Shown: positions 12,130-50,233 of the stretch, piece by piece
Position numbering within the stretch: the stretch's first letter is position 1
How the letters are laid out: each line of letters opens with the position of its first letter
From: a virus
Reading direction: 5' to 3' (one strand)
Virus record (IMG/VR): IMGVR_UViG_3300036860_000057
Coordinates: 1-64,000 of that record
Length of the DNA: 64,000 nucleotides
Made by a program: the position numbers and the translations under genes
The notes under the pieces: model-generated
Told to the model about the DNA's origin: nothing
What the model saw: the letters and a program-made list of their open reading frames with translations, nothing else
The model's database searches: none

Positions 12130-12508
12130 AGCCCCAACACGGATCAGTCAGGGCCTTTACTCTGGGTTTGGTTACTCATCCCACCACTACCAGAATGTGG
12201 ATCGTTCCATGATTGGACAATACAGATATGTTGTAGTTCCACATTTTACTAGCATTCCCATGTTTCCTAGCTGGCAAGTGGACAACCCATCAAAGTAGAT
12301 TAAAAGTGCCAGTTGACGGTAAAGGCTATAGGGACTGGCGGCTCCTTACATTCCACATGTTCAACGGTCAGTGGTCAACCTTCTGCCCTCTCACCACAAC
12401 GGCAGATCGTTCAAACCAGGAGACTGTGCTGTCTCTTGCTGCTGGGTCAGCCCCTCCTGCACATCGGAGGCACGTTTCCGTTTAGGTAAAACCTAATCGT
12501 GTTGGGCT
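12130..12508 (-). ncRNA. Unassigned ~380-nt multibranched structured RNA
   Basis: Closing helix AGCCCAACACG/CGTGTTGGGGCT with many internal helices (CCTCC/GGAGG, GAGAC/GTCTC, TCTGCC/GGCAGA, GCCAGT/ACTGGC, AATGTGGA/TCCACATT, CCACT-TGCCAG/CTGGTA-GTGG); no credible ORF. Confidence 0.7.
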
Positions 12509-12521
12509 AGTGAGTCGCCAG

Positions 12522-12585
12522 TTCTTCTGGAGAGGCTCGAACTCTCAACTGCCTTGCGGCATTTTGCCAATTAAACTACAGAAGA
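12522..12585 (-). ncRNA. Anticodon-less tRNA-like RNA (GCAA tetraloop replaces the anticodon loop)
   Basis: TCTTCTG TA GTTT AATTGGCA AAAT GCC GCAA GGC AGTT GAGAG TTCGAGC CTCTC CAGAAGA A. Confidence 0.8.
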
Positions 12586-13963: not shown

Positions 13964-14227
13964 TTAGTGACCTAAAAGTTTCGTGAAGATTTTCCTGAGA
14001 AATGATTTAGGTTTAGGAGGAGTTGGTTCATCAAGTCCTAATAATATGTCCACTGATCTGTATTGTCTATATCGCAGCATAACTTTTAGCTTGTGGCGAC
14101 ACTGATCATGCACCTTGAAAGGCACGCCCTTATAATTAAAGATCACTAATGATCTCAGTAGAGGCATGTCACAAACTGGACACTTGTCCAAAAATAAGTG
14201 AGGCCAAGTCATTACCATTCTCTTCAT
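13964..14227 (-). CDS. Hypothetical Zn-binding protein
   Basis: CPVC...HDQC; coupled ORF. Confidence 0.6.
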   Translation of the reverse strand: MKRMVMTWPHLFLDKCPVCDMPLLRSLVIFNYKGVPFKVHDQCRHKLKVMLRYRQYRSVDILLGLDEPTPPKPKSFLRKIFTKLLGH

Positions 14228-14841
14228 CTCAACACCGGATCAGAATATACTGTTCCACCCAACTCTATAGCAAACCACGTTGTAGGTATGGTTGTCTCAC
14301 GCAAATAGCAATCTGCATCAGCACTTCCCCAGTACGTGTCAATAGCCCAATACCATAAACAATGTACTAGGATAGGAACTGTAGTTGTATATCTGTCGTG
14401 GAAACCACAGTCAGTGCTAGGACAATCACGAATTCTGAGTTGTGAGCGAGGCTGATAGTATTGGTAGGTGATGATTTTCACAGGATAGGACAGTTCACCT
14501 ATAGGTGTGGGTGTTAGGAATCCAGTAGCAGCAGGTGTCAATGTTGGTGTGGGTGTTAACGTCTGTGTTGATGTCGGCGTATTAGTCGGCGTGGATGGTG
14601 CTTGAGTCTCTGTAGGAACTTCTGTATCAGTGGCAGTTGGTAAGGCAGTGTTCTCTTGAGTTGGCTCATTGGTTGCTGTCTCAGTTGGTGTGAGTTCTGG
14701 TGTAAAGAAGGTAACTTGAACTGAAGGTTCCGAAGTAGGAACTGTAGCAGGAAGAGTAGGAAAGGTTCCTGTAGGTGTGGAGACACATCCAGTCCATGTC
14801 AATATGGTAATTAGAAATAAAACTCTCTTTAAGTTAACCAA
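14224..14841 (-). CDS. Putative lipoprotein: Pro/Thr linker plus SH3b-like domain
   Basis: Hydrophobic N-terminus ending WTGC; TPT repeats; LRIRDCPSTDC. Confidence 0.7.
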   Translation of the reverse strand: MVNLKRVLFLITILTWTGCVSTPTGTFPTLPATVPTSEPSVQVTFFTPELTPTETATNEPTQENTALPTATDTEVPTETQAPSTPTNTPTSTQTLTPTPTLTPAATGFLTPTPIGELSYPVKIITYQYYQPRSQLRIRDCPSTDCGFHDRYTTTVPILVHCLWYWAIDTYWGSADADCYLRETTIPTTWFAIELGGTVYSDPVLR

Positions 14842-23505: not shown

Positions 23506-23884
23506 CCAACTTCCCATCTCTGAACTCAACAATTTCTACATAATCAGCAGTTCCTACATCCCAGCGAGGATTGAAGTTAGGATCATTGAATGTATCAATA
23601 TAAAGACTCCAATCCTTACTATTTCCATATTGATTAGTGAGGTAATCATAGAAAAGAGATACAGGAGTCATAGTAACCAAACACGCCTCACATCCAAAGT
23701 CTGAAATTTCTCGTGCTCCATAGTGAATTAGATAAGCATGTTGGACGATACTTTCCTTGTCTTTATGAACCCAATGTCTGATGTATTCAGCTACATTTTT
23801 GGCATTAAATCCATTATCACCTGCAATAACCTTGCAGACTACTTCTCCATCTACTACTACTGAAACGAGTCCTTGTGTTGCCAT
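23486..23884 (-). CDS. Hypothetical protein
   Basis: AAGGA RBS, 132 aa. Confidence 0.7.
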   Translation of the reverse strand: MATQGLVSVVVDGEVVCKVIAGDNGFNAKNVAEYIRHWVHKDKESIVQHAYLIHYGAREISDFGCEACLVTMTPVSLFYDYLTNQYGNSKDWSLYIDTFNDPNFNPRWDVGTADYVEIVEFRDGKLVDNTIK

Positions 23885-23895
23885 TATTGATCCTT

Positions 23896-24003
23896 TCTAA
23901 ACATGCACGCCAATATTGAACTACTAAAATCATTAAAACATTCTCTGATTTTCCCAATCAAGTGATTTTACTGTTCCATACTATGATTTCTAATTACCAT
24001 ATT
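23896..24003. repeat. Degenerate ~100-bp intergenic repeat (other copies 24941-25021 partial, 27478-27600) carrying ATGCACG
   Basis: Shared ctaaacatgcacg...tattgaa...ttctctgatt...agtgattt...actatgatttc. Confidence 0.7.
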
Positions 24004-24007
24004 GATG

Positions 24008-24074
24008 TGGACCTGCTTGGAGTCGAACCAAGTTCTTGTCCCAACCTACGGGACAATCGATACCCATCAGGCCC
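24008..24074 (-). ncRNA. tmRNA tRNA-like-domain (TLD)-only RNA
   Basis: GGGCCTG ATGGGTATCGA TTGTCCC GTAGGTT GGGACAA GAA CTTGG TTCGACT CCAAG CAGGTCC A: G3-U70, A73, stemless D loop ending GA, GA after the helix, T arm. Confidence 0.8.
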
Positions 24075-24098
24075 ATTCTCATCTGCCCATATGATATT

Positions 24099-24299
24099 CT
24101 AGTTGTGTGCGTAGACGTAGGTTTCAGCAGAGTTACTAGCTCTGGCGAGTTCCCATGTCTTACTCTTCATCAGCAGCTTCTTCAGTCTGTCTGTCTTAGT
24201 TCCCAGAGGAAATTCCCGTAGGAATGGAAACTCTGTGAACCACATTTGACACACACCGGAACCATACAAGAACTGAATACGGAATAATTTTCTCATCAT
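24099..24299 (-). CDS. 66-aa hypothetical protein enclosed by a 13-bp inverted repeat
   Basis: CAGGAG RBS, MMRKLFRIQF...; flanking IR at 24077-24089 and 24314-24326. Confidence 0.65.
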   Translation of the reverse strand: MMRKLFRIQFLYGSGVCQMWFTEFPFLREFPLGTKTDRLKKLLMKSKTWELARASNSAETYVYAHN

Positions 24300-24329
24300 A
24301 TCTCCTGTGAGTGTGGGCAGATGAGATAA

Positions 24330-24387
24330 TGGTGCAGCAGAGACTCGAACTCTGTGTAGGCCCACCTACCACACCAGAATATGCACG
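24330..24387 (-). ncRNA. Degenerate anticodon-less tRNA-like element
   Basis: GTGCA/TGCAC acceptor core, GTAGG-TGGG-CCTAC short arm, CAGAG-TTCGAGT-CTCTG T arm. Confidence 0.6.
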
Positions 24388-24402
24388 TCACTGTCTATCT
24401 TG

Positions 24403-24432
24403 ATTCTATAATCAGATCAGTGATTGTGTCAA
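24403..24432 (-). promoter_or_regulatory. Sigma70 promoter upstream of the tRNA-mimic cassette
   Basis: TTGACA-18 bp-TAGAAT. Confidence 0.7.
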
Positions 24433-24436
24433 GTGA

Positions 24437-24940
24437 TTAGTATTTGTTATGAAGGTGTTTCCAGACCTTTCCTAGTTTTATACGAGATATGGCAACTTCA
24501 CTTACATTGTATATCTTAGCTATTTTACTCTGCTTGATTTTATTGCTATTTAGTAATTTTATTATCTCTATTACTTGCTCTTCTGTTAATTTAGCACTAC
24601 CATGATTCTCTCCAATAGACTTAACAATCCTTCCTTTGGATTTACAGTCTTTCATATTGTCATCTTGTGTACCTAGTTTGAGGTGATTAGGATTAACACA
24701 AGAAGGATTATCACAGAGATGCATCACTAGTTTATTATCCGGTATGTCTCCATTTACTAACATCCACGACAATCTGTGTGCTCTGTATCTCTTGTGATCA
24801 ATAGCAATAATTCCATAATTATGATGATCTTTGTGCCCTAACCATTCCCAGCACTCACTATCTGATTTCTTGTTTATTTTGCTCCAAAAGTATTCAATTG
24901 GATTCATCTTTCCAAATTTGCTCATAATTTGTTCCTTCAT
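24437..24940 (-). CDS. HNH (HNH_3-type) homing endonuclease with C-terminal HTH
   Basis: CWEW, YG, AHRLSW, MHLCDNPSCVNPNHL, N..D; KLTEEQV...IAKIYNVS. Confidence 0.92.
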   Translation of the reverse strand: MKEQIMSKFGKMNPIEYFWSKINKKSDSECWEWLGHKDHHNYGIIAIDHKRYRAHRLSWMLVNGDIPDNKLVMHLCDNPSCVNPNHLKLGTQDDNMKDCKSKGRIVKSIGENHGSAKLTEEQVIEIIKLLNSNKIKQSKIAKIYNVSEVAISRIKLGKVWKHLHNKY

Positions 24941-25269: not shown

Positions 25270-26397
25270 CTATAACATAGTAGGCATAATAATGTGCCAT
25301 GCAGCATACTCAGGTGTAAACTTGATCATGTATCCTATATTAGAAACATTCTTGAAATCAGCACGAATAGAATACCCATCGAACTTAGCAAGAGTTTCCA
25401 CCAATTGGCTGATCTTGTAGCCTGACTTGATCGACTCACCAATCACATAAGCATCGACTACGCTGTCTGTAGTACCCAGATCGCGACTAGTAGCACTCAC
25501 CCGAATGATCTGCTTATCCTTGTCAGACTCAAGTGATGTGAACTCAGAAAATACTTCAGAACGTTTTAGGACAATAGACAGACCATCAGGATCAACTCTC
25601 AGTGTATGCAGATCATTGGCAAAGAATATATGAGTGTAGTCAGGAAATTGGCCCTCTGTAAGATGCACGGCGAATTCAGCGTTTCCAGACACAATAAACA
25701 ACATTCCAGCATTGAAAATCAAGTCAATATCTTCCTCATACTTAATCTCATCAGCAAACAGTGACTTGAATTTCTCAATGGCTGATAGAGGCACGAGTCC
25801 CGATACTTTCCCATCGAATGATGGACTCCCAAACTCATATTCTCTGTGAGCCATGCGCTTAGTATCTGATGTTGTAACCTTGAGGGTGTTGGTATCATAC
25901 TCGAACCAGACACCACTCAGGGCAGGCAGAACATCATCCTTAGAGGCAGCATACAACACCTCATTCAAGAGCTTCAACAGCACAGCAGCATTGATCATAA
26001 TGCTAGGACTATCCTCAGCCTCATTATCTCTAGGCCAAGGAATTAAAGGGAATTCCTCACCGTCGATTCCCTTGAATGATGCTTTAGTCGCTCCGCAAAC
26101 AATATTCAATTCCATCGTTCTCTGTACTATGTCTAGCTCGACTCGCTCAGGGGAGAGACGATCTACGAACTTAGCGAACCTGGTATAGGGAACACAGATT
26201 GATCCGTCCTGATCGACTACTGCCCCAACACCTACACGCATATCAGTATCCAGATCAGAAGTCTCAAGATAAACACGCCCTGCATGAGTAGAAATTCTCA
26301 CTGATTCTAGTACAGGCAGTGTTGATTTCTTAGAGACTGTCTTACCAACACGCCTCAGACCATTGGTTAGATTGTCTTGCAACATTGATACTTTCAT
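25270..26397 (-). CDS. dnaN: DNA polymerase III beta sliding clamp
   Basis: MKVSM...STLPVLE...SDLD, EEFPLIP, P.LSGV, SDTKRMA, EGQFPDY, IIMP C-terminus; 375 aa. Confidence 0.93.
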   Translation of the reverse strand: MKVSMLQDNLTNGLRRVGKTVSKKSTLPVLESVRISTHAGRVYLETSDLDTDMRVGVGAVVDQDGSICVPYTRFAKFVDRLSPERVELDIVQRTMELNIVCGATKASFKGIDGEEFPLIPWPRDNEAEDSPSIMINAAVLLKLLNEVLYAASKDDVLPALSGVWFEYDTNTLKVTTSDTKRMAHREYEFGSPSFDGKVSGLVPLSAIEKFKSLFADEIKYEEDIDLIFNAGMLFIVSGNAEFAVHLTEGQFPDYTHIFFANDLHTLRVDPDGLSIVLKRSEVFSEFTSLESDKDKQIIRVSATSRDLGTTDSVVDAYVIGESIKSGYKISQLVETLAKFDGYSIRADFKNVSNIGYMIKFTPEYAAWHIIMPTML

Positions 26398-31326: not shown

Positions 31327-31382
31327 GGACTCTTCAGTGTAGCTAGTTAGCTACAGACTGGGGACAAGCCCCAGTTTCGTCC
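31327..31382 (-). ncRNA. Hammerhead ribozyme, type II
   Basis: GGAC GAAA CTGGGG CTTGT CCCCAG TC^ TGTAGC TAACTA GCTACA CTGAAGA GTCC: full CUGAnGA/GAAA/GUC core; predicted cut 31356/31355. Confidence 0.92.
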
Positions 31383-31564
31383 TATAGCTCCCATCGGGGA
31401 GCATCACCTCGGCGCATCATCTCATCATTGACTAGTTCTAATTCCTTGCGTATCTGATCCTGGTATTCCTCAGTCTGATACAGATCAGGATCATCAAGAA
31501 TAATCAGTAAGTCTAGACGCTTCCAAGAGATTTGTTCGTCGTCTAACTTCTGTAGACTTCTCAT
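31382..31564 (-). CDS. 60-aa hypothetical protein flanked by hammerheads
   Basis: AAGGAGTCA RBS, MRSLQKLDD... Confidence 0.65.
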   Translation of the reverse strand: MRSLQKLDDEQISWKRLDLLIILDDPDLYQTEEYQDQIRKELELVNDEMMRRGDAPRWEL

Positions 31565-31579
31565 TATGTGACTCCTTGT

Positions 31580-31640
31580 TAGGCTCATCAGTACAGGCTA
31601 TTACCTGTAGACTAGGGAAAGTATCCCTAGTTTCGTCCTA
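31580..31640 (-). ncRNA. Hammerhead ribozyme, type II
   Basis: TAGGAC GAAA CTAGGGA TACTT TCCCTAG TC^ TACAGG TAATAG CCTGTA CTGATGA GCCTA; predicted cut 31610/31609; stem II has a bulge/mismatch. Confidence 0.88.
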
Positions 31641-48869: not shown

Positions 48870-49115
48870 ATGACCCACTCTACTCTTACATGGTTCAGTG
48901 GTGTAATTAAGCCAAGCCAATCAGAAGATCAGATTCTAATTGCAATGCCAACTCTAAATGGTGACAAGATAGAAGTAATACCAGATTTATTTAGGTACAA
49001 CAAGAAACAAGATGTATTTACTTCTCGCGCCATTCCAGGACATGTAGATAGGAAAGATGTTAGATATTGGGCCTATGTGCCACTCTATTTGGAAGATCAC
49101 GAAGGAAAAGGTTGA
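48870..49115 (+). CDS. Hypothetical protein (DUF551-like W...KP...V.YWA)
   Basis: Motif pattern; AAGGA RBS. Confidence 0.6.
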   Translation: MTHSTLTWFSGVIKPSQSEDQILIAMPTLNGDKIEVIPDLFRYNKKQDVFTSRAIPGHVDRKDVRYWAYVPLYLEDHEGKG

Positions 49116-49245
49116 CAAGTGTTGAAAATTGTGCTATCATGAAATTAGATGTACCTCTATGTGTGTAGTGTGTTCGACTCCTTTTATTGTGTAAGTGTAG
49201 ATGTGGTTCGGGGATAACCACATAAAACACCTCCGTTCTTTAACA
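49112..49245 (+). promoter_or_regulatory. Promoter plus boxB/boxA-like antitermination leader of the tRNA operon
   Basis: TTGACA-17 bp-TATCAT with extended TG; hairpin ATGTGGTT/AACCACAT; GTTCTTTAACA at 49235-49245. Confidence 0.65.
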
Positions 49246-49252
49246 ATTTAAT

Positions 49253-49324
49253 GCGTGTGTGGTGTTAATGGTAGCATCACACTCTTCCAAAGTGAAGGTT
49301 AGGGTTCGAGTCCCTACACACGCA
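49253..49324 (+). tRNA. trnG: tRNA-Gly(UCC)
   Basis: GCGTGTG/CACACGC acceptor; loop CTTCCAA; TAGGG-TTCGAGT-CCCTA. Confidence 0.93.
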
Positions 49325-49491
49325 CAAGCTGGGGTGTTCCCAGCATAGCAAGGAGACACTTATGTACTTCGTGCCGCTTCTCTCGTCTACAGGTCAAATC
49401 CTCCCCGATTGGCTTAGGCAAAAGAAGCTATCGTCACCGTAGTAAAGTGTAACTTCCGGCTATAAGGGAGGGTGAAAGTCCCTCCCACCAT

Positions 49492-49562
49492 ACATCTGTG
49501 ATCTAATGGTAAGAGCACAATCTCCAAAATTGTGAATCCTCGTCCGAATCGAGGCAGATGTG
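49492..49562 (+). tRNA. trnW: tRNA-Trp(CCA)
   Basis: ACATCTG/CAGATGT acceptor, G73; ACAAT-CTCCAAA-ATTGT; T-loop variant TCCGAAT. Confidence 0.88.
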
Positions 49563-49596
49563 CTGACCAGTTATCATCATTCCAAAGGAGGAATAA

Positions 49597-49752
49597 ATGT
49601 TCAACTGGGGCCGTATAAGAACGGTGCTATTGGGGTTGCTTCTTATTGCAGCAGGACTAATTCTGGCGTTCAATCTGAACTTCACCAACATGAATTATGT
49701 CCTTGCTGTACTGGCAATCTTCGATGGCGTTCTATGGATTATATTTCCATAG
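49597..49752 (+). CDS. 51-aa 2-TM membrane peptide
   Basis: Not in the track. AAGGAGG RBS; MFNWGRIRTVLLGLLLIAAGLILAFNLNFTNMNYVLAVLAIFDGVLWIIFP. Confidence 0.75.
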   Translation: MFNWGRIRTVLLGLLLIAAGLILAFNLNFTNMNYVLAVLAIFDGVLWIIFP

Positions 49753-49758
49753 AAAAAT

Positions 49759-49804
49759 GGAAGGTCTGATACTGGAGTAAGATGTTCGAACCATCAGCCT
49801 TCCA
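49759..49804 (+). ncRNA. 46-nt mini tRNA-like RNA (acceptor plus T arm only)
   Basis: GGAAGGT CTGATACTGGAGTAA GATG TTCGAAC CATC A GCCTTCC A. Confidence 0.6.
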
Positions 49805-49869
49805 GTTGCCCATGAGGGCATTTTCCTGCGGATTGAGGGGAGTGAACTGAAGGCACTCCCCTCTTTATT

Positions 49870-49941
49870 GCCAACATAGCACAATGGTAGTGCAAATCTT
49901 TTGTAAAGATTAGGCTGAGAGTTCGAATCCCTCTGTTGGCT
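49870..49941 (+). tRNA. trnT: tRNA-Thr(UGU)
   Basis: GCCAACA/TGTTGGC acceptor; AATCT-TTTGTAA-AGATT; GAGAG-TTCGAAT-CCCTC. Confidence 0.93.
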
Positions 49942-50009
49942 CTTAGGGCAGTAAGTGTGGGGCAAGGCTTAGGCATAACCTTGAATATCTGTACTGCCCT
50001 ATATAAATT

Positions 50010-50120
50010 ATGAGAGACATATTATTTATTGTTGTATATGTAGCTGGTGAGTTAGTTGCAGTCCTGACAGATTGTGTAATTCTTGTTGGTGCAGTTCTGT
50101 ACGTCATATTGAAATGGTAA
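50010..50120 (+). CDS. 36-aa hydrophobic peptide
   Basis: MRDILFIVVYVAGELVAVLTDCVILVGAVLYVILKW; weak RBS. Confidence 0.4.
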   Translation: MRDILFIVVYVAGELVAVLTDCVILVGAVLYVILKW

Positions 50121-50128
50121 TTATAGAT

Positions 50129-50184
50129 GGGCCAATTATTCCGGTGAATGCTAGCTATGGCGGATTCGACTCCCGCTTGGTCCG
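50129..50184 (+). ncRNA. 56-nt anticodon-less tRNA-like RNA with G3-U70
   Basis: GGGCCAA TT ATTC CGGT GAAT GCTAGCTATG GCGGA TTCGACT CCCGC TTGGTCC G. Confidence 0.7.
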
Positions 50185-50233
50185 CCGTAACCTGTACGGC
50201 GCAGAGGAGACGACACTCAATCAGTGCCAATGT

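Follow-up and report, generated by a model that had tools for sequence, protein, structure and literature searches.

We identified, on the minus strand of an uncultured soil phage genome (record IMGVR_UViG_3300036860_000057; 78.5 kb, rated 99% complete in IMG/VR), a small open reading frame (ORF) enclosed between two non-decoding tRNA-like RNAs, the first a minimal tRNA mimic (E1) and the second a tmRNA reduced to its tRNA-like domain (TLD; E2). The two arms of a perfect 13-bp helix lie just inside the boundaries of these RNAs, on either side of the ORF, which bears the codon usage of the phage's own genes. From this arrangement we infer that host tRNA-processing enzymes would release the ORF as a 255-nt mRNA with paired ends, a reading whose chances of being right or wrong we consider evenly balanced. 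The pairing would stabilise the mRNA, and the co-transcribed TLD may act on trans-translation. The window that we analysed is the first 64 kb (64,000 nucleotides) of the 78.5-kb record, and all coordinates refer to it.

The segment adjoins a homing endonuclease gene of the HNH type (24940..24437, minus strand), free-standing and coding for an HTH at the C-terminus, which is located directly upstream of the promoter; the tRNA regions of phages T4 and T5 also harbour homing endonucleases. Directly after the HNH stop codon is a sigma-70-type promoter (24403..24432, minus strand), composed of TTGACA, an 18-nt spacer and TAGAAT and matching 11 of 12 consensus positions; the initial annotation of this DNA had described a sigma70 promoter at this place. 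A leader of ~20 nt separates the promoter from E1 (24330..24375, minus strand), and the 5' arm of the helix (24314..24326, minus strand) begins 3 nt past the E1 discriminator. The Shine-Dalgarno sequence AGGAG (24302..24306, minus strand) follows 7 nt past this arm and 5 nt ahead of the second ATG of the ORF (24099..24296, minus strand; 65 aa plus stop, or 66 aa if read from the ATG at 24299). The 3' arm (24077..24089, minus strand) starts 9 nt past the stop codon, so that both arms are positioned just outside the translated unit, and ends 2 nt before G1 of the TLD (24008..24074, minus strand). Position -1 is a U ahead of both E1 and E2. Every feature listed in the initial annotation was present at its reported place on the minus strand when the sequence was inspected. 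The unit had also been called a self-contained cassette, and this description had to be given up. No terminator was found 3' of the TLD ahead of the next gene, which encodes 132 aa, starts at 23884 and lies on the same strand as the cassette; the unit therefore opens a longer leftward transcript and is not closed off as a cassette.

E1 is 46 nt long and was detected using the Rfam mascRNA model and a strict acceptor/T-arm scan. Its 7-bp acceptor stem includes two G-U pairs, one 4-bp hairpin replaces both the D and the anticodon arms so that no anticodon is present, and a canonical 5-bp T arm with the loop UUCGAGU is followed by a discriminator A at 24330, with no encoded CCA. A tRNA-like element had earlier been placed at 24330-24387; a minimal tRNA mimic is indeed present, but its true extent is 24375..24330, and the extra 11-12 nt on the 5' side are unpaired. 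E1 matched the mascRNA model with 26.1 bits (E = 0.008 for 1 kb searched), far below the gathering score, and the likeness to mascRNA, the sole family that it resembled, appears to be one of shape only, with no homology. When folded alone, E1 was no more stable than shuffled sequence (z -1.5), and its MFE structure is an alternative hairpin.

In the strict scan, a 7-bp acceptor stem had to adjoin a 5-bp T stem directly, both perfectly paired, and the T loop had to read UUCRA. Five distinct elements were found in the 78.5-kb genome, namely tRNA-Arg, tRNA-Gly, E1, E2 and a further mimic at 12585..12523, as against 0.03 expected from Markov-simulated genomes, which argues that E1 and E2 are real structures. 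Both show the coaxial acceptor-stem/T-arm design that suffices for RNase P and RNase Z to recognise t-element or mascRNA-type processing signals (perfect 7-bp and 5-bp stems, UUCRA loop), and cleavage at them is predicted. Other identities for the two elements were considered and rejected. They are not canonical tRNAs: a cloverleaf with D and anticodon arms is missing, and neither E1 nor E2 was called as a tRNA by ARAGORN or Rfam tRNA; the permissive ARAGORN modes (-ps80, -mt) gave too much noise to be used. The 3' strand of E1 cannot pair with the 5' strand of E2, as a permuted two-piece tmRNA would require. Decayed pseudogenes were also rejected, as all stems are perfect and the family covaries.

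E2 aligned end to end with the Rfam tmRNA model RF00023 (model positions 1-374), with the central 310 positions deleted and 7 nt in their place. The score of 20.7 bits (E = 3.3e-7 in a 96-nt search) did not reach the gathering threshold of 47, as is to be expected with five sixths of the tmRNA model absent, and E2 was missing from the gathering-score Rfam scan of the whole window. The element has a 7-bp acceptor stem with G3:U70, the alanine identity pair, as the third pair, a discriminator A73, a stemless D-loop analogue (GG..UCGA), a canonical T arm and a helix 2a that ends in a 7-nt loop; it contains neither a tag reading frame nor pseudoknots. The tail reads ACAU where ACCA would encode CCA. 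The fold z-score was -4.1, and a weak match to the mascRNA model, far below the gathering score, was also obtained. The full-length alignment with the tmRNA model, together with G3:U70 and A73, confirmed the earlier suggestion that the downstream element is a tmRNA tRNA-like domain.

A gene of mycobacteriophage DS6A has been called a 'TLD only' tmRNA, and reduced tmRNAs are also found in jakobid mitochondria and Mallomonadaceae plastids (PMC4131195, PMC11915505). We located the DS6A copy at JN698994 28478-28556, between gp33 and a DNA pol III beta-like gene, where it is unannotated in the GenBank record. In addition, a single pattern scan of IMG/VR with a pattern built on the features of E2 yielded 21 stretches, ~15 of them distinct (loci L003-L023), and several of these loci adjoin tRNA genes. 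The IMG/VR elements are ~75-80 nt long, and among the ~15 of them covariation was seen in helix 2 and the T stem, with double changes in 9 of the 11 predicted pairs. E2 was aligned with 17 other TLD-only elements; in the MAFFT alignment, two subgroups are offset by one column in their acceptor strands. The DS6A molecule is phage-encoded and shares with E2 the acceptor stem with G3:U70, A73, the D-loop analogue, helix 2 and the T arm, as well as the lack of a tag frame, of pseudoknots and of an encoded CCA. DS6A and the IMG/VR relatives differ from E2 in having an extra internal hairpin, whereas E2 is shorter, with its helix 2a capped by 7 nt. By these sequence features, E2 is a further and unusually short member of the known TLD-only tmRNA kind.

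Tag-less mini-tmRNAs of the DS6A type are thus not a one-off, given the 21 stretches (~15 distinct) found in IMG/VR. A passage in PMC11915505, citing Mao et al. (2009), reports that a TLD-only molecule of the DS6A type inhibits tmRNA. In view of the number of such elements, phages may recurrently use interference with the ribosome rescue of their hosts as a strategy. We did not find smpB in the phage genome, and the SmpB partner of the TLD would therefore be that of the host. Separately, short T-arm/acceptor-like matches to the 3' half of the TLD were seen in Microbacterium phage records (e.g. NC_048090.1 39349-39374). In many of these phages the matches are close to the right end of the genome, in DNA that carries no annotation, and they may represent further unannotated tRNA-like elements.

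Relatives of the locus were sought in several collections. No nucleotide relative was present among the 50,697 phage records of INPHARED (megablast and blastn). With tblastn, the 132-aa neighbour gave no match and a DUF932 neighbour matched actinophages only, at 24-30%. Peptide-pattern scans of IMG/VR using the ORF, the 132-aa protein, the sliding clamp and the clamp alignment found nothing, and the sole match to the same scans in JGI metagenomes was one 26% relative of the clamp. The phage sliding clamp gene (25273-26397, minus strand) has viral-type homologues on other contigs of a protein collection, at 75, 50, 49 and 45% identity, while its nearest cellular homologues are DnaN proteins of Anaerolineae/Chloroflexi (30-35% identity), a similarity that provides a weak hint to the host phylum. 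A 16-nt pattern taken from the 5' end of the TLD gave chance matches in all phyla when genome contigs were scanned, with no host signal. Among sequencing runs, no RNA run was listed as containing the locus, and three soil metagenome DNA runs contained it, all with identical sequence and with no variants and no joints.

The ORF had been annotated as encoding 66 aa behind a ribosome-binding site. Both the ORF and the AGGAG are present, but the second ATG, at 24296, has the better Shine-Dalgarno spacing and is the likelier start, giving a protein of 65 aa. The codon-usage score of the ORF was 0.096, compared to a mean of 0.18 and a 5th percentile of 0.05 for 65-codon windows of the long genes of the phage, and was far above that of off-frame windows (95th percentile -0.19). 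An identical 65-aa protein is recorded from another contig in the protein collection; beyond identical copies no homologue was found, and no Pfam or PHROG family was matched. A single-sequence AlphaFold2 model was compact (pLDDT 73.7), with no neighbour in the ESM Atlas and no Foldseek match in PDB or BFVD. We take the ORF, on such predictions, to be a real orphan gene. An ArfA-like rescue factor was considered as its product and rejected for want of a family match.

The arm at 24089-24077 is a perfect 13-nt complement of the arm at 24326-24314, with mismatches immediately outside and no extension on either side; the complement that the initial annotation had placed 3 nt after the mimic and 2 nt before the TLD agrees with the sequence. 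Perfect 13-bp inverted repeats at a spacing of 20-400 nt occur once in the genome, compared to a mean of 0.93 in Markov-simulated genomes, 48% of which contained at least one. The repeat alone is unremarkable. Its placement, flush with both mimic boundaries, is improbable by chance: we estimate a probability of ~1e-6 for arms within 5 nt of both boundaries, a post hoc figure in that the measure was chosen after seeing the data. Whether the processed RNA, the primary transcript or a longer read-through form was folded, the helix was predicted: 11 of its 13 pairs had a probability of 1.0, the full range being 0.68-1.0, and the duplex energy came to -23.7 kcal/mol. The proposal that the mRNA between the mimics has paired ends is therefore in keeping with predictions for both primary and processed transcripts. 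The Shine-Dalgarno sequence was predicted to be mostly paired in a local hairpin. No long-range stem was found beside the TLD in the ~15 other TLD-only loci, which are not homologous cassettes; mini-tmRNAs as a family therefore do not share the clamp, which is at most a local invention.

We propose that the segment would function as the promoter-proximal part of a leftward transcript in which both tRNA-like RNAs act as products and as cutting signals. RNase P would cut 5' of E1, between 24376 and 24375, and 5' of the TLD, between 24075 and 24074. A tmRNA or tRNA becomes functional only after RNase P has cut at its 5' end, and a functional TLD would thus require the second of these cuts. Cleavage after both discriminators would fall to a nuclease that processes tRNA 3' ends, either RNase Z or RNase E together with exonucleases. 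The host CCA-adding enzyme would then complete both mimics, since nothing in the phage encodes CCA: it is absent from all four tRNA genes and from the mimics, so that 3' ends in this phage must come from cleavage and CCA addition, and no gene for a CCA-adding enzyme was found in the phage. The middle piece released by these cuts (24329..24075, 255 nt) would be a monocistronic mRNA for the 65-aa protein. The 16 nt at the 5' end of this mRNA and the 15 nt at its 3' end would form the 13-bp helix with 3-nt and 2-nt overhangs. Nucleases that act from an end (RNase E through 5' sensing, or RNase J; PNPase and RNase II) would find both new ends hidden by the helix, and end-dependent decay would be limited because the 5'-phosphate and 3'-hydroxyl ends are locked in one helix. 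The helix would also keep the ORF as a folding domain apart from both mimics. The matured TLD, probably alanylated, may act as a competitor of host tmRNA in binding SmpB, an effect that has been reported for the DS6A-type molecule.

The logic of the processing scheme is sound and agrees with what is seen elsewhere in the genome, and the interpretation, resting as it does on a single sequence, is partly supported. Certain points count against it. A perfect 13-bp repeat is expected about once per genome by chance, and the placement argument is post hoc. A duplex that begins 3 nt upstream of the cleavage site could impede the protein subunit of RNase P in binding the leader. The lack of a long-range stem in the ~15 other TLD-only loci, the largely paired Shine-Dalgarno sequence and the lack of a terminator after the TLD also weigh against the model.

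Features that bear on RNA processing are found elsewhere in the genome. A cluster on the plus strand (49100-50190) comprises a promoter, tRNA-Gly, tRNA-Trp, tRNA-Thr, mimics and small ORFs. One mimic (~49759-49804, plus strand) lies between tRNA-Trp and tRNA-Thr, and a G3:U70 acceptor-type mimic without the tmRNA D-loop motif (50129-50184, plus strand) follows tRNA-Thr. Between the RNAs of the cluster, at 49.2-50.2 kb, three small ORFs (26, 51 and 36 aa, by eye) with strong Shine-Dalgarno sequences are located, and in the spacer RNAs a stable hairpin starts 2-3 nt after the upstream tRNA or ends 5-6 nt before the next. Pairing of 5' to 3' ends is weak in these spacers (-4 to -11 kcal/mol) compared to the cassette (-25 kcal/mol). 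On the minus strand, two hammerhead-core motifs (31634..31585 and 31378..31331), matching the descriptor GAAA, stem III, UC, stem I, CUGAnGA with an open stem II of 4 bp only, bracket a small ORF in the same leftward array; the two in the genome compare with none in 40 simulated genomes, and no Rfam hammerhead was returned at E<=1 for 31331-31634. Together, the hairpins beside tRNA boundaries and the pair of hammerhead-core motifs make structured ends look like a habit of this phage, which raises the prior for a cassette helix acting at the RNA level. We tentatively suggest that the early transcripts of this phage are systematically divided into mRNAs of one gene each, with structured ends. 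True tRNAs flanked by hairpins, two hammerhead-like ribozymes and the non-decoding tRNA/tmRNA mimics would be the three kinds of punctuation. The cassette would then supply a bacterial 'closed-loop' mRNA, released by host RNase P and a 3' tRNA nuclease, clamped by the 13-bp helix and co-expressed with a mini-tmRNA that shuts down host trans-translation, a broader scheme that is possible yet doubtful.

Two further observations were made in the genome. A third anticodon-less mimic (12523-12585, minus strand) lies just after tRNA-Arg and is followed by an ORF-poor stretch of ~380 nt (12130-12508, minus strand), the ends of which can pair in a ~10-bp helix. The region 12130-12585 resembles the cassette in its layout of a mimic followed by an end-paired domain, but without an ORF, and no Rfam family reached its gathering score there. 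In addition, a 20-nt exact inverted repeat (27 nt at 93%) connects 23987-24006 with 14799-14818. The RNA of the first copy, which begins 2 nt after A73 of the TLD, is the reverse complement of the FLITILT signal-peptide codons of a gene for a 205-aa lipoprotein-like protein (14841..14224, minus strand). Transcription of this gene likewise proceeds from the minus strand, so that its mRNA would have an antisense counterpart in the TLD trailer, and the repeat, for which we estimated a chance of ~0.005, could be either a 3'-trailer-derived antisense RNA or a recombination scar.

The helix may serve mainly as a folding insulator that closes the ORF into its own domain and allows the mimics to fold and mature correctly, with mRNA stability being secondary. 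E1, with its 46 nt, a z-score of -1.5 and an alternative hairpin as its MFE structure, would be vulnerable to misfolding, and the helix was predicted with a probability of ~1 in every context tried. However, in the full-length fold the helix was present and the TLD acceptor stem was closed, yet neither mimic had a cloverleaf-like MFE fold. An insulator could moreover be placed anywhere in the flanks, and the presence of the arms exactly at the predicted cut sites would be left unexplained. We therefore regard insulation as the main role as unlikely.

It is rather improbable that the helix acts as a double-stranded processing stalk, in which both arms would be substrates of RNase III or of a Mini-III-type enzyme, whose simultaneous cuts would separate mimic, mRNA and TLD. 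The topology would fit, with a looped-out gene, flanking sequences that pair and neighbouring genes of tRNA type, and phages such as T7 punctuate their early mRNAs by RNase III. Typical RNase III substrates span about two helical turns, however, a length that 13 bp with mismatches immediately on both sides does not reach, and RNase P and 3' processing at the mimics would already yield the same separation.

Improbable to a similar degree is that the repeat is a feature of the DNA with no role in RNA, such as a recent inverted duplication or recombination scar, the terminal repeats of a small mobile ORF cassette that landed between two tRNA-like genes, or the borders of a segment that can invert. 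Like other young repeats, it is perfect and stops abruptly; one of this length occurs about once per genome by chance, and an HNH homing endonuclease gene lies directly upstream. Past recombination in the area is suggested by the 20-nt stretch just downstream of the TLD, which is an exact copy of sequence elsewhere in the genome. Against this, no transposase, resolvase, integrase or tyrosine recombinase was found in the genome, there is no target-site duplication, and no further copy of the arm within 2 mismatches is present in the genome. The metagenome contigs show a single orientation, which is weak evidence against an invertible segment, and a flush placement at both predicted processing sites would be unexpected for a random insertion.

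The initial annotation had also considered the mRNA potentially circularisable. RNase Z-type and RNase P cuts leave the 5'-phosphate and 3'-hydroxyl ends on which Rnl-type ligases act, and the helix is predicted to hold these ends 5 nt apart; nevertheless, ligation into a circular, exonuclease-proof mRNA is very improbable, given that neither an RNA_ligase (Rnl2-type) nor an RtcB gene was found in the genome, which is 99% complete, that a T4 Rnl1-type search was blank (as was its control), that 3-nt and 2-nt overhangs are not the geometry of a sealed nick, and that RtcB, the common bacterial RNA ligase, requires 3'-phosphate or cyclic phosphate and 5'-hydroxyl ends, so that the predicted ends are not its substrates.

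Release of an end-paired mRNA by tRNA-processing enzymes, the reading that we prefer, can be compared with systems already described. It had been stated that no phage element with this architecture is known; we likewise did not find the arrangement as a whole described, but a TLD-only phage tmRNA has been published (PMC4131195, PMC11915505), and the parts are of known kinds. If the predicted cuts occur, the locus would be a compact natural case of tRNA punctuation in a phage, with non-decoding mimics defining both ends of an mRNA that protects itself by pairing them. Such a case would be relevant to the means by which phages control the stability and dosage of their small early proteins, and would offer a simple part (mimic-clamp-ORF-clamp-mimic) for synthetic operons. 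In DS6A and the IMG/VR TLD loci, unlike the E2 locus, no ORF is clamped by pairing of leader and trailer.

tRNA-like processing signals are already known from organelles and from MALAT1. The ends of Arabidopsis mitochondrial mRNAs are set by t-elements, or tRNA punctuation (PMC1920247). As in that organellar system, non-decoding tRNA-like structures would mark the RNase P and RNase Z sites that make mRNA ends, although here the system belongs to a phage and the cuts are predicted. In MALAT1 and MEN-beta, an anticodon-less tRNA-like RNA (mascRNA, RF01684) is cut by RNase P to create the 3' end of the upstream RNA, which is protected by a nearby structure. The cassette would similarly have a mimic-made, structure-protected 3' end, its cut again being predicted, and E1 and E2 match the mascRNA model weakly; the MALAT1 system, however, is eukaryotic and nuclear, with protection by a triple helix instead of pairing with the 5' end. 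rRNA operon stalks likewise have flanking sequences that pair, a looped-out gene and tRNA genes at the side, but they are long, are cut by RNase III and yield rRNA, whereas the present helix is 13 bp and its loop is an mRNA. Finally, in the tRNA regions of T4 and T5 and in the tRNA-tufB operon of E. coli, tRNAs and mRNAs are co-transcribed and separated by tRNA processing. The cluster of this phage at 49.2-50.2 kb is of the same kind; the cassette differs from such clusters in that both of its punctuating RNAs are non-decoding and in that the ends of its mRNA are paired with each other rather than in local hairpins.
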